From positions 13,991-77,990 of the forward strand of contig JAZQBI010000069.1 in NCBI GenBank assembly GCA_045545635.1: a stretch of 64,000 nucleotides of DNA. The letters run 5' to 3'. Position numbers and translations under genes: made by a program. Shown in pieces: positions 37,035 to 58,202 of this stretch. Source of the DNA: Clostridia bacterium. Lineage in GTDB: Bacteria; Bacillota; Clostridia; UMGS1810. The notes below the pieces were generated by a model. It saw only the letters and a program-made list of their open reading frames with translations, had not been told where the DNA came from and searched no databases. The stretch's first letter is position 1. Every line of letters begins with the position of its first letter.

Positions 37035-40000
37035 ATGAAAAGATTTTTTGCATTTTTATTGGTGCTTGCCATCACTTTAGGGGCAATGCCAATGGGCATT
37101 ATGGCTTCCGGCGAGGTGTACACTGACTTTGTGAAAGGAAGCATAGAAGATAACCTTGTAGTAAACTTCAAGGACTCCTTCTGGCATGCCAACACCCTCA
37201 ACGATTCCAGAGTTTCCCTTACGGGAATCAATTGGATCAACGGTGTGGGATATGCCGGTGCATCTATGACCGCCAAGGAGGATATACCTACGGTTGCTTC
37301 CCATTATGGCAGTGCAGGTATGGCAATAGGTACTTCAACCAATGCCACACATCCAAAGATAGAAAAAGAAGCAGATTCATACGCTATAGGCGAAAGATAT
37401 GTCTTTAAATTTGCGGCACGCAACATTAATCCCGACATTTCCGCTACCATAAGATTAGGTGTGTTCAACGGCACATATTCCGGTGTGGAATCCAGAGACT
37501 TTCTCCCCGTGACAGAGTATCCAAACGGTGAGATAGTGCTTCCTCAAAGCGGAGAATGGGTTACTGTGGAGGTTGTTTTGCCATCCTCCCCAAACAGAGC
37601 TGTTCCCGCAATACGTCTTGGCTTTGTCAAAGGCACCAAAGCAGGTGCATCGGTAGAGTTCAATGCCTGCCATCCCGGTGTTCAGCAGGTCTACTATGCG
37701 GAGGAAACTGCTCACAGCATAGAGGCAGACATTGTTTCTGGCGAGAATACACTGGGTGCAAAAGCCTCCATAACTCTCACCGCTTCGGTATTCAATCAGC
37801 TTGAAGAAAAAGGCAACTTAAGTCAGGAATTTGACTGGGCTTTGCTTGACTCCCAAAAAAGCCAAGTAACCGAAGGCTACACCATTACGGATAATGGCAC
37901 AAGTGCCAATGTTACCTTTGCAAATACAGATCTCAATAATGGCGATTACACAATAGTTGCCACCTCAAGGGAATACGGAATTTCAAGATTTATTCCCATA
38001 ACTGTCAGGGCAAAATTTGAGCTTCCCGAGTACATTCCTGTTTCCTCTGATGATAACCTTATCGAAACACCCACAAAGTCATCTATGGTAAGCACCGGAA
38101 CATCCAATATCGTACACGGCAAGACAGACGGTCTTACATATCCTGAAATATATACGGTTTGTGCAAGTGCAGATGTTGATGCACCTGCACACACCTGCTA
38201 TGAGCACGGTTTCCTGTACAAAAAGCTTGAGCCCGAGGGCGGCTATGTTGCAGGCGATAAATATGTTTTTTCTGTTTGGGTACGAAACTCCGGAGATGCT
38301 CCCACAAACTTTATTGCAGGACTTTCCAATGCGTATAATGTACCTACACAATACGGTTCCAACCACGGAAGCGAAGGCATATATCTTCCCAATGACGGCA
38401 AGTGGTATCACTACAAGGAGATATTCACAATGCCGGGTCCCAGGCCTATACTTAGTGCAGGCTTGCCTGCAGGAACAAAGGCAGGTGCCTCGGTAGATAT
38501 CAATCTTACAAATTCCGAACTTTCACCCTCTTATTTTGCAAAAGAGGTTGTTGCGGATATAGAGGCAGCAGCTTCAAAGCTTACTGCAAATAAGGGCGAA
38601 ACAATTACGATTGATGCCACTGTGGCAAATCAGCTTGGAGATGAAGGTTCACTGGCTCAGAACTTCAAGTGGGATGTTCTGGACGAGGATAAAAACTACA
38701 AGGATAGCGGTTATACCTTAAGTGCAGACGGTGACAAGGCATCTCTTACTGTTAATACGGAAGAAGCAGAAAACATATATGTGGCGGTAACTTCAACCGA
38801 TTACAATATAGTGCGTATGGTTCCCGTATCTGTAAACGGAAAGAAAGCTTTTGTGGATTTTGTAAAAGGCGAAATGCCTAAGAATCTCATTGCAGATCCC
38901 ACCGCAACAGATCATTTTGCAGATGCAAGTGCAAACTACAATGTGGAGGAAACCGGTGATTACAGACTGGAGCTTTCCAGTACATTTACCGCAAAGGCAG
39001 ATGTTACATCCTATGGTGCAGCTCACACCAAAGCCAGCGGTTTCCTTATCAAAAGCGGAAACACAGGAATCAGCACAGATTCCCTTCTTACAGGCGGAAC
39101 TCCGTATGTGTTCAGTGCCGATGTAAAGAATGCCAACGGCACAGGGGACATTGTTCTTGACGTGAGCCTCAGTAACTCAAATTACTGGACTGCGTCAAAA
39201 CCTGTGGAAACCTCCGCCGGCTACACAATTCCTGCAGGAGACGAATGGTACAAGGTTGCCGCAACCATGAAGCTTCCCGGTGACGTGGGAGCAGAATACA
39301 AGCCTTACCTTATCTTTGGCTTTGGTATAGGCACCAATGCAGGAGACAAATTTGAATTAAACAGAAAATACCCCACGGCAGATGCAATGTACTTTGCACC
39401 CGAGGAGGCATATGACATAAAGGTAACCAATCTTTCGGACAGTATGACGGTACAAAAGGGTAACGAAATTTCCTTTGGTGCCGAGGTATTGAATCAGATT
39501 GGTTCCACAGGATACTTAAATCAGAACTTTACCTGGTATGTAAGAAAAGCTGACAACACAGATGCTTCATCTTACTTTACCCTTGAAATAAGCGAAGACA
39601 CAAAAACAGTAACCCTCATTCCCAAGTCAAAGGCAAAGGGCGGTAAATATACCGTAATTGCCGCATCTGATGACTATGAGGAGCTTGTGAGGTTTGAGGA
39701 CTTTGTAGTTGCGGATTCCTCCACAACTCTCTATGTAGCTGTTGACGGAAGCGACAGTGCAGAGGGCACATCTTCCGAGCCTCTTGCAACACTTCAGGGT
39801 GCAATTGACAAAGTTGCAGAACTCAGAAAAAATAATATAACTGTAAACGAGGTTATATTTGCCCCCGGAGAATACCGTTTTACAGAAGGTGCGGTTTTTG
39901 GTAAAAAGGATGTTTACGATGTTCCCGTTACATTTAAGGCAGAAGAAAAGGGAACAGTAGTATTCAAAGGCTCCCAAAAGCTAAATCCCACAGACTTTAA

Positions 40001-57000: not shown

Positions 57001-58202
57001 TAGAAAATACAGATGACCATGTTGCGGGAGAAATCCCTGCAAACCTTATTACATCACCAAAGAATTCATCTTTATGGTATACCAATCCCACATATACCAA
57101 CAGTACAACCGTTCAGACAAAGAATGAGTGGACTTCCGATGGCTTTGCAGGCTATGCGTTTAAAACAACTGGTACTGTTACAAGTGTAACAAACGGTTAT
57201 CAGGTAGCAGCAGGTTCCAGACTTCTTCCTGCACAGTTTAACGACTATACTGCAACCGAGGGTGAACACTATGTAATTAAGTTTGCCGCACGTTCACTTA
57301 CCGAAAACACAGGCTTTGGCGTAAGAATCGGTACATGGAATGGCGCATATTCCGGAACTGCAAAAGATGTAAGCCAGATTATGGATTACGAAAATGGTGT
57401 TGCGAATGTTCCCGGTGACGGCGAGTGGCATACAATAAAGGGAACATTGCCCGCACTCAGAGCAGCAGACATAAATGACAGTGGAAAGATTCGTTGCATT
57501 ATCGTCGGAATGGCAGCAGGTACTCCTGCAGATGTAACAATGGAGCTTAATAACCACTACAAGGAAATCCCCGATGATGTTCCTTACTTTGCAAAGGAAA
57601 CAGCTCATGACATCAAGGTAACAGGTGCATCCGATACAGTTTCCGCAGGCGGAACACTTAATCTTAAAGCAGAGGTTATCAATCAGATTGAAACCAAGGG
57701 TGCTCTCACACAGTCGTTTGACTGGGTAGCAGTAACCGAGGACAGACTTTCCTATGTGGACGGAATTACATTCACCGAGACAAACGACGGTGCAAATGTT
57801 ACAGTAAATGTTGCAGATACAGTTCCTGCAGGAGATTACATCATAGTAGCACAGAACAAGACATACGATATGAACAGACAGTATTCCATTACTGTTACCG
57901 TACCTGACTATGATGTAACGGAGCTTGTAGTTACAGCCACAGCAAACAGTGCATCCGTTGATGCCATATGCGTAAATGCTGATGAAAATGTTGAAGTTGT
58001 CATTGCTGCATACAACACCAGCGGATTTGTAAAGGCTAATGCAGTAAAACTTACACCAAACGACGGTGTTGCAACGCTTGCCGAAGCTCTTTCCCTCACG
58101 GGACTCAGCACGGGAGATACAGTGAGAGTATTTGTCTGGGGCGAAAATCTTGTACCCTTTACAATGAAGAATGTATGGAGAGAAGCTGTAACAATTAAAT
58201 AA
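54066..58202 (+). CDS. Secreted protein F: N-terminal SGNH/GDSL hydrolase + 4 x CBM-like with Ig-like modules + shared C-terminal module
   Basis: 1378 aa from ATG 54066, with GGAGGA upstream. SGNH blocks GFLGGSIT, GIGGTGS, VFVEYAVND and DNIHPNALGH. Downstream modules duplicate modules of proteins A, B and E. Confidence 0.8.
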   Translation: MKRVLSFVLSLVMILGLISVPAFASDVKTSGYDNLNNNAGDLVIGFLGGSITVADGDSNSMGFNRYATRVTKWFQDKYPAKIVKQVNAGIGGTGSDLGKYRVMTDIGAYAPDVVFVEYAVNDTHYSRLYSETVRSNMETIVRTLQSLPKVPVIVFLYSMHDDSYAKLNYTSIPDHQAVADYYDIETIDFYNYMKPLVEKGDFIWDKTKAGSLTNDNIHPNALGHEQYGKYIISQLESRDILHKNNYGIAPKFESTTVNTRDIKLDSATKSGIWEDSYSGQSDNKYEAIQSTATGDSITLTYTSAGNDSVGVTVLRGEGSYVLDEGTDSEISGTFSVSDSNLPVVKNFASGLSAGVHTVKIVNTADGTEVPHLKLGRLVAHGGREVAAATTAENGDHIPGSKPANLIQGGQTGNIIGTGNNGKVGYTEYKQDYTGNGTIYKFSATDTVTKGSWGGEGVNIRKLTEETQATSSGILYDGYTAKQDTYVFKTRVRALSGTPRIGSATTISWKPTYDNIYKGDGFIPGEEWEDYKTTLTSAGDGFTLCFGFSNAVAGDAFLVDFGDGVYYAPEEAYDVKVETTGTKNEVIAGGKNTYKAELLNQIEIPGTLSQEFTWSVVDAEGNGVEGLTVTVGDSSNEATVVAGADVPFGTYYLKAVSVPTSWQKTLAIEVVEGPADPYAKDYVPGAIPENKVVNFESSFWVTNTLTDSKVELLGTNWINGKGWATAQILVKSDIDTVSSYYGSAGLYIKTVTDATYPKIEMNAEDYVDGDHYVFMFAARNADTSIKDVKLRVGVWNGTYSGTSKDYIPVQEYPDGMVSLPDNGDWVVVKATLPNRATGVAAPSIRMGLPVGSVAGTKVELNSLYEDVQQAYYAKEVSHSVEIEAKSDNSVSTGSKSVFTAKLLNQLGLTGYLNQDEVTFSVGDDKGNPIDGLTVTSDGAYATVSASDDVDEGEYYLRAEYPKDDGTVMRKTLAIKVAGSVENTDDHVAGEIPANLITSPKNSSLWYTNPTYTNSTTVQTKNEWTSDGFAGYAFKTTGTVTSVTNGYQVAAGSRLLPAQFNDYTATEGEHYVIKFAARSLTENTGFGVRIGTWNGAYSGTAKDVSQIMDYENGVANVPGDGEWHTIKGTLPALRAADINDSGKIRCIIVGMAAGTPADVTMELNNHYKEIPDDVPYFAKETAHDIKVTGASDTVSAGGTLNLKAEVINQIETKGALTQSFDWVAVTEDRLSYVDGITFTETNDGANVTVNVADTVPAGDYIIVAQNKTYDMNRQYSITVTVPDYDVTELVVTATANSASVDAICVNADENVEVVIAAYNTSGFVKANAVKLTPNDGVATLAEALSLTGLSTGDTVRVFVWGENLVPFTMKNVWREAVTIK

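Follow-up and report, generated by a model that had tools for sequence, protein, structure and literature searches.

The window analysed here, 64,000 nucleotides of contig JAZQBI010000069.1 from a Clostridia bacterium, carries on its plus strand six consecutive genes for large secreted modular proteins, designated A to F. Sequence comparisons and structural models suggest, with a probability of about 65%, that this locus encodes a surface apparatus which degrades a glycan and which resembles the polysaccharide utilization loci (PULs) of Gram-positive bacteria. A carbohydrate-directed function had been proposed in the initial annotation of this DNA and agrees with the presence of two β-helices of the glycoside hydrolase (GH) clan GH141, an SGNH hydrolase, modules resembling carbohydrate-binding modules (CBM) of family CBM4_9, a sugar solute-binding protein (SBP) and a regulator. 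As judged from related genomes, a conserved cassette exists in multiple copies in a clade of spore-forming gut Clostridia related to Ructibacterium (Oscillospiraceae), and the locus represents one of these copies.

Genes A (37035..42386, 1783 aa) and D (47953..51669, 1238 aa from its ATG or 1242 aa from an upstream GTG) each encode a GH141-like β-helix, located at 39711-41834 in A and, with an inserted β-sandwich, at 48019-50040 in D. The two regions are homologous (A893-1711 and D27-835, 36% identity by self-BLAST); the initial annotation had rightly recognized two β-helices, but their length is about 800 aa and not the proposed 650 aa. Ninety-eight homologues were detected for D, and a profile of 793 positions was built from 20 sequences of the A/D family. 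When compared with the PDB, this profile matched 9rx2 (E 7e-78) in three stretches covering positions 7-704, the GH141 enzyme BT1002 (5MQP, E 1e-35) and, further away, the GH120 enzyme XylC (E 2e-10) and a polysaccharide lyase of family PL9 (E 1.5e-8). Single-sequence PDB searches with D, E and C gave no match. The entry 9rx2, deposited recently under the name "Parallel beta-helix repeat protein", has 717 aa and an N-terminus that resembles a lipoprotein signal; our literature search found neither a publication nor a function for it, and its function, once published, would bear directly on the A/D family.

An AlphaFold model of residues 27-835 of D (predicted local distance difference test (pLDDT) 82.5, predicted template modelling score (pTM) 0.87) displays a right-handed parallel β-helix with an inserted β-sandwich, as in GH141. 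Searched with Foldseek in a structure collection that lacked 9rx2, the model found BT1002 (5MQP) as its best solved match (E 5e-21, template modelling score 0.66), followed by GH120, GH110 and GH136. The essential catalytic residues of BT1002 are D523 and D564 (PMC10154630; PMC12786026), which we equated with chain indices 528 and 569. This offset of 5 was deduced from the lengths of the chain and of its modelled part and from the two Asp being separated by an identical 41 residues. In a hidden Markov model (HMM) alignment, both residues fall on Asp that are invariant in the A/D family, within the motifs D-C-A-A-I-Y and Y-W-D-D. The putative catalytic pair corresponds to D493 and D535 in D (49417-49419 and 49543-49545) and to D1367 and D1406 in A (41133-41135 and 41250-41252). 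Owing to the profile matches, the fold and the conserved Asp pair, A and D probably are glycoside hydrolases that belong to the GH141 clan as distant relatives of GH141. The initial annotation had regarded the catalytic parts as impossible to place, a view that no longer stands since they lie nearest to 9rx2 and BT1002. Activities known for GH141 concern the side chains of rhamnogalacturonan II, xylan and fucoidan (PMC10154630; PMC12786026).

Gene F (54066..58202, 1378 aa from an ATG located behind GGAGG or 1381 aa from a TTG) encodes an SGNH/GDSL esterase (54201-54755). Its Lipase_GDSL_2 score of 62.3 bits exceeds the Pfam cut-off of 32.9, and the blocks GGSIT, NAGIGG, VND and D-N-I-H (DxxH) are all present, so that the single SGNH hydrolase read initially from the sequence is intact in its catalytic blocks. 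A β region with no assigned family (54774-55256) and three pairs of X and Ig-like modules (55242-57926) follow. The predicted esterase hints at an acetylated glycan as substrate.

The X and Ig-like modules make up much of the locus. Nine X modules of about 190 aa and ten Ig-like modules of about 100 aa (noticed at first as about 90 aa) are real repeats according to self-BLAST and alignments, and they are arranged as X + Ig pairs, three in A (37116-39719), one in B together with an extra Ig, two in E and three in F. Gene E (51787..53907, 706 aa), without catalytic domain, carries X at 51892-52434, Ig at 52420-52752, X at 52750-53298 and Ig at 53284-53631. The initial annotation likened the X modules to the CBM4_9/22 type; a distant kinship to CBM4_9 was recovered, but not a direct match above threshold. 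CBM_4_9 (PF02018) was found directly in two of the nine modules, weakly (best E 0.003), and no match below E 0.01 was obtained when A to F were scanned at full length. An intermediate protein, P0109, can be aligned with the X profile over its residues 328-531 (hhalign 96%, E 1.5e-9), and Pfam detects CBM_4_9 there at 416-485 (E 6.7e-11). These alignments support the X modules being very distant CBM4_9 relatives, with a predicted ability to bind carbohydrates. The PDB contained one weak match to the X profile, a β-agarase fragment (E 0.003), and only noise or linker matches to the Ig profile.

When modelled with AlphaFold (pLDDT 76.6), E forms a string of all-β domains. As a whole the model matched only generic multi-Ig chains in Foldseek (Sap, complement C3/C5), and its single modules were not placed. 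E has no Pfam or NCBIfam match at all, and proteins of its type are rare (11 matches among 5.8 billion proteins; P0099 is 100% identical to E). For the six proteins together, Pfam and NCBIfam recognize only S-layer homology (SLH) repeats in B and C, GDSL in F and a marginal Beta_helix in A and D; scanning the modules with HMMs, as had been proposed, thus places SLH and GDSL but almost nothing beyond.

Modules were also exchanged. The X module of B (42542-43084) and the third X of F (57057-57599) share 85.7% DNA identity over 546 nt, and the segment from Ig2 to the C-terminal module of E (53278-53778) shares 78% over 508 nt with the corresponding Ig3 segment of F (57585-58085). On these DNA identities, X modules and Ig plus C-terminal modules have been swapped recently within the locus.

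Behind the β-helix, A has an Fn3-like module (41832-42134), and D has an Fn3-like module (50098-50445) and FIVAR-like helices (50377-50589). The Fn3-like modules, seen already in the first reading, are supported by Foldseek matches to 2dkm and 3mpc, and the FIVAR-like stretch by a profile match to NagH in its FIVAR portion (2jnk/2ozn, E 8e-4). A β-rich region of D appears DUF1080/LamG-like by eye and has no direct Pfam match; a weak 3keto-disac_hyd match occurs in the homologue P0066. The end of D (51322-51582) is Cu_amine_oxidN1-like: a direct match of this C-terminal part to PF07833 was not obtained even with the threshold relaxed to E<5, and residues 1128-1214 align to residues 1128-1235 of P0019, where Pfam finds PF07833 at E 3e-9. 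Cu_amine_oxidN1 has been reported on surface-exposed proteins and cell-wall hydrolases of a Gram-positive bacterium (PMC4137172).

Attachment to the cell wall is predicted for the products of B (42404..45079, 891 aa) and C (45076..47934, 952 aa). B is composed of an X module (42491-43090), two Ig-like modules (43076-43423 and 43421-43813), a conserved helical domain named Bmid (43796-44503), a Gly/Ser linker and, at the extreme C-terminus, three SLH repeats (44528-45076; three Pfam stretches, E 4e-37). C starts with an SLH trimer (about 45148-45645), whose family profile spans the SLH-trimer chain of SpaA from position 23 to 176 and finds the SLH domain of Sap as well (E 6e-15 to 3e-19), and ends with a domain of about 750 aa without known fold, named Cpost (45673-47931). 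Both SLH triplets, C-terminal in B and N-terminal in C as originally described, are full trimers. SLH trimers bind pyruvylated secondary cell-wall polymer. Profiles of Cpost and Bmid produced only noise or linker matches in the PDB, and hhalign found Cpost unrelated to the X, Ig and β-helix regions, to the Dct region of D-like proteins and to the C-terminal module (CTD) shared by A, E and F.

In agreement with the initial annotation, which reported no cohesin, dockerin or LPXTG, none of the six proteins has a Cohesin or Dockerin Pfam match at E<0.01 or a duplicated Ca-loop motif, and a regular-expression and hydropathy scan of A to F detected no C-terminal LPXTG with hydrophobic tail and no membrane segment beyond the signal peptide. 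The view that only two of the six proteins are anchored is correct for the SLH repeats of B and C but misses the CTD of A, E and F and the Cu_amine_oxidN1-like end of D. C was also considered as the main S-layer lattice protein and rejected for this role: several paralogues occur per genome, each in a cassette and translationally coupled to B.

Two further C-like proteins are encoded in the window. An orphan of 964 aa (SLH + Cpost, 29950-32844, plus strand), with no adjoining B-like or D-like gene, sits just upstream of the SASA esterase gene. A third C-like protein of 746 aa (SLH + Cpost-like, 7506-9746, minus strand) is the last of a minus-strand run in which it is preceded by genes for an HlyD-like adaptor (11668-13647), an ABC ATPase (10952-11671) and a MacB/FtsX permease (9768-10955). 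From its position beside a MacB-type pump, it may be that proteins with Cpost also act outside glycan cassettes.

The recurrence of the cassette was analysed in related loci, which are the best 75 of more than 557 genomic matches to a D-family motif and which were annotated with custom HMMs. Almost all of them come from metagenome-assembled genomes (MAGs) of uncultured gut Clostridia (human Hadza and Nepali, sheep, goat and water deer); other carriers are Ructibacterium gallinarum DSM 107454 (Oscillospiraceae; cassette in L025) and some Paenibacillus. Three types of genes recur. B-like proteins have a variable N-terminus, the helical Bmid and three SLH repeats, and 52/56 end at most 15 aa from the stop; C-like proteins have an N-terminal SLH region followed by Cpost; D-like proteins combine the β-helix with Dct. 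In 34 of the 49 loci of at least 15 kb, the three genes lie side by side without interruption, in the order B-C-D or D-B-C. The other loci of this length mostly contain all three genes in a different order, the exceptions being mainly Paenibacillus. Spacing is tightest between B and C (median 5 nt, with 18 overlaps among 43 pairs, mostly ATGA); the median gap is 18 nt between C and D and 90-117 nt around CTD genes. In many loci, genes for an AraC-type regulator, for two ABC permeases and for an SBP precede the cassette in this order, and single MAGs contain 6-7 or more diverged cassettes. The A-B-C-D-E order is retained in the closest relative (87% identity). The D-type enzyme of Paenibacillus bears SLH on its own chain (L076, P0045, P0066).

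Some loci depart from this organization. L005:4580-9982 encodes a B-C fusion of 1801 aa in the order Ig-Ig-Bmid-SLHx4-Cpost, and L019 and L023 contain open reading frames (ORFs) of 1438-1457 aa with four to five SLH repeats and Cpost, which are B-like/C-like fusions with SLH in mid-protein. In loci of the D-B-C variant (L022-L068 type; e.g. L025, L031, L033, L036 and L061), stand-alone ORFs of 313-331 aa consist of Dct only, and Dct is often duplicated in D. No description of the cassette was found in the literature search. The trio of Bmid-SLH, SLH-Cpost and GH141-like proteins, its repetition per locus and the CTD are apparently undescribed, surface-anchored modular glycan degradation being of a kind already known in Firmicutes.

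The CTD, a module of about 90 aa at the C-terminus of A (42102-42383), E (53620-53904) and F (57918-58199), is a confident 7-strand β-sandwich in the model of E (pLDDT 86-95). An HMM of this module was iterated on stop-to-stop ORFs of the window and 76 fetched loci (1.33 Mb). Ninety of the 97 copies recovered lie at most 10 aa from the stop of ORFs of 500-1700 aa, compared with 1.4% expected, and the cargo is diverse (β-helix enzymes, SGNH, CBM96, Big_5 arrays and unassigned domains). CTD and SLH were never found in one protein of the same ORF set (0/209; 113 with SLH, 96 with CTD; Fisher p 9e-26, uncorrected for relatedness). No curated family matched the CTD above threshold, CARDB, DUF7490 and FxLYD appearing below threshold in a few members; the PDB gave a weak match to a GH2 Ig-domain, hhalign found the Ig module unrelated to the CTD, and a 3-sequence CTD profile had 21 matches across 1.84 billion representatives. 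By these searches, the CTD is a new, uncatalogued module. With respect to sorting domains of the type IX secretion system (T9SS), Por_Secre_tail matched 1/58 CTDs (E 3e-4) and NCBIfam sorting domains none. The module is internal in 7/97 copies, and an SGNH domain then follows in at least three (L025:215-3562, L026:268-4995 and L068:1095-5636). A role as a pure secretion signal is disfavoured because of the seven internal copies.

One possibility, which we put forward tentatively, is that the CTD acts as a dockerin-like module plugging A, E, F and further enzymes onto the SLH-anchored Bmid and/or Cpost to form a cassette-specific, wall-tethered multi-enzyme complex. The terminal position of the CTD, its presence on unrelated cargo and its exclusivity with SLH would be expected of such a module, even though a plain CARDB/FxLYD-like β-sandwich could equally bind wall polymer or substrate. 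At least one CTD protein is encoded together with B/C in 44 of the 49 long loci, and B, C and the CTD are absent together from Paenibacillus loci; this co-occurrence is, however, confounded by common ancestry. Diverged versions of B and C are kept in every cassette, which would be needless for a generic wall anchor. Within the window locus, on the other hand, the CTDs are just 24-56% identical, and the internal copies, including those followed by SGNH (L025, L026, L068), are not easily reconciled with docking. Were docking correct, the module would perhaps represent an independently evolved analogue of the cohesin-dockerin pair, organised per locus like the SusC/D pairs of Bacteroidota PULs, and B, C and D together with the CTD would constitute a hitherto unrecognised route to wall-tethered multi-enzyme complexes in Gram-positive gut bacteria.

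Upstream of gene A, the window encodes an AraC-type response regulator (34030..35253, minus strand; receiver + HTH_18/HTH_AraC in Pfam), which is a candidate regulator of the locus and whose homologues flank many related cassettes, and a sugar ABC solute-binding lipoprotein (35484..36926, plus strand; SBP_bac_1 + DUF3502, lipobox LFAGC). Both had been noticed directly upstream in the initial annotation, and the lipobox and Pfam domains confirm their nature. In related loci, the same SBP comes after two permeases, directly upstream of the cassette. The composition of a Gram-positive PUL is thus found as regulator, SBP and secreted enzymes in the window and as adjoining permeases in sister cassettes.

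In the mechanism that we propose, B and C would be made in a fixed ratio and lie side by side in the wall by means of their SLH trimers, with Bmid and Cpost projecting outward. D, always encoded beside B/C, and the CTD proteins A, E and F would be held at the cell surface, where the CBM-like arrays would capture a complex, probably acetylated, glycan. F would strip acyl groups, A and D would cut glycosidic bonds, and the resulting oligosaccharides would be imported by an SBP-dependent ABC transporter under the control of the AraC-type regulator.

Several points weigh against a glycan-degrading surface apparatus. The source organism is uncultured, and the enzymatic and surface roles are predicted. 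A and D are only about 15% identical to characterised GH141, and the Pfam insertion domain GH141_M (PF21231), with weak matches in distant paralogues only, was not detected in A or D; their chemistry could consequently differ from that of GH141. The X modules alone reach no CBM family threshold. The cassette of the window has no adjoining permease genes, and the AraC-type regulator has a weak receiver domain and no adjoining kinase gene. D is present in the sampled loci by design, as the D-family motif was used to collect them, and the locus counts are not phylogenetically independent because many loci come from related genomes. Finally, that D, A, E and F associate with B or C we infer purely from gene order, fusions and domain exclusivity.

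A pectic or arabinan-type substrate had been suggested from nearby genes. The GH127, SASA and UxaB/UxaA-type genes are real, but the substrate is not established, since these genes are 3-35 kb off and partly belong to another regulon and since GH141 activities are varied. A second regulon of comparable design in the window (1699-7045) comprises an AraC-type response regulator (1699-2907, minus strand), a GH127-like β-L-arabinofuranosidase (2961-5066) and two ABC permeases (5191-7045), beside which no SBP gene was detected, whereas the A-F locus has an SBP gene and no permease genes next to it.

A role in remodelling glycans of the envelope of the producing cell (its secondary cell-wall polymer, S-layer glycan or capsule), or in attacking the capsules or exopolysaccharides of neighbours, is improbable. 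It could be evoked by two Wzx/MurJ-like flippase genes located directly downstream of F. These flippases, together with YabQ, an S1-domain YabR-like protein and SpoIIR, are encoded at 58298-63447 and 26552-27217; from these sporulation genes, the source organism is a spore former. The flippases look like a yabM-type sporulation neighbourhood that is not part of the locus. They stand in a sporulation/housekeeping context and are beside a cassette solely in the window and in a near-identical MAG contig, L002. A self-envelope role is weakened because this yabM-yabQ-yabR-like neighbourhood does not travel with the cassette. The presence of Cu_amine_oxidN1 domains on cell-wall hydrolases (PMC4137172) and the β-helix fold common to phage capsule depolymerases would also suit such a role, whereas other cassettes are flanked by sugar importers and no phage genes are nearby. 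An origin from a phage tailspike or depolymerase was rejected, no phage genes being present and glycoside hydrolases matching better.

Least probable is that the proteins are non-enzymatic adhesins or structural S-layer/biofilm proteins whose β-helix and Ig arrays attach to host or plant surfaces: PfbA-type β-helix adhesins are among the weaker Foldseek matches (rank 18), the E model resembles the Ig-like strings of the Sap and SbsC S-layer proteins, and E lacks a catalytic domain, none being recognisable in B and C either. Against this, the catalytic Asp pair is invariant across the A/D family, every one of the best structural matches is a glycoside hydrolase, the SGNH domain has its catalytic blocks complete, and sugar ABC importers and regulators are consistently linked to cassettes. 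Adhesion also accounts less well than substrate diversification for the presence of at least 6-7 diverged cassettes in one genome.

Concerning the layout of the locus, the six co-directional ORFs are all intact and located exactly where the initial annotation had put them. The signal peptides ascribed to all six products were borne out, each with an M-K/R start and an n-region rich in K/R, followed by an h-region of strong hydrophobicity (Kyte-Doolittle 2.4-2.9). Spacings of 17 nt between A and B, a 4-nt overlap between B and C and 18 nt between C and D were reproduced. Terminator hairpins lie 3' of the upstream SBP gene (36937-36972) and, as a long one, 3' of F (58211-58253); a clean terminator lies 3' of E (53924-53960), and a GC-rich hairpin without T-run 3' of D (51686-51711). 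E and F each have their own ribosome-binding site and promoter-like site. Based on gene spacing, hairpins and the sites in front of E and F, A-B-C-D most likely form one transcript of about 14.6 kb, and E and F are most likely separate transcription units. The single long A-D transcript anticipated earlier is in keeping with this, only these four genes appearing co-transcribed.

The locus genes are intact in related MAGs, so that degradation in related strains, raised as a concern beforehand, was not encountered. Compared with L002, B, C and D have dN/dS values of 0.07-0.19, indicating strong purifying selection, and E and F values of 0.34-0.40; these low values indicate that the five genes are functional. 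For B, C and D, dN is 0.01-0.02 and dS 0.10-0.18, the D proteins of both MAGs being 98% identical. For E and F (window 51787-58202 against L002:12459-18853), dN is 0.13-0.22 and dS 0.38-0.56. The faster divergence of E and F suggests recombination or diversifying pressure on glycan-binding components.

The clade concerned is common in human (Hadza, Nepali) and ruminant guts and devotes many large loci to this cassette, the protein mass of which lies almost wholly outside Pfam, NCBIfam and PDB sequence searches. If our reading is true, a Bmid-SLH gene overlapping an SLH-Cpost gene beside a GH141-like enzyme would be a signature for Gram-positive glycan loci, like SusC/D; the large GH141-clan branch would be a source of new enzyme specificities; and Bmid, Cpost and the CTD would be three function-unassigned domains with testable hypotheses. 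The cultured carrier Ructibacterium gallinarum DSM 107454 opens the way to experiments.

Among known systems, cellulosomes likewise combine SLH-anchored non-catalytic proteins with modular enzymes that share an SLH-exclusive terminal module. In the present locus, however, cohesin and dockerin were not detected, the CTD is a β-sandwich whereas dockerin is Ca-binding and helical, and D has just the FIVAR module which precedes the dockerin in NagH. Moreover, an anchor pair is found per cassette in place of one master scaffoldin. The CTD is also reminiscent of the C-terminal domains of the T9SS in Bacteroidota, which are Ig-like β-sandwiches of about 90 aa at enzyme C-termini, but the T9SS is absent from the host, a Firmicute, some copies of the CTD are internal and Por_Secre_tail is weakly present in only 1/58. 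In the SLH enzymes of Paenibacillus, the same β-helix enzyme is fused to SLH; here the enzyme is not SLH-fused and is accompanied by an SLH pair without recognisable catalytic domain (Bmid-SLH and SLH-Cpost), while its partners bear the CTD. With the GH141 enzymes (BT1002 of Bacteroides thetaiotaomicron, PDB 5MQP; Xyn141E/Cthe_2195; Wf141 endo-fucanases), A and D share the β-helix and inserted β-sandwich, and BT1002 offers the best solved fold match in the collection lacking 9rx2, with both catalytic Asp kept. They differ from GH141 by an identity of about 15%, by being about 40 orders of magnitude nearer to 9rx2 in E-value, and by a far larger size within architectures of CBM-like, Ig, Fn3, FIVAR and CTD modules; 9rx2, although the closest solved relative of their catalytic region, is a single-domain protein. 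Taken together, the AraC-type regulator, the SBP (with permeases in sister loci), the secreted enzymes and the SLH repeats are features that the locus shares with Gram-positive PULs.

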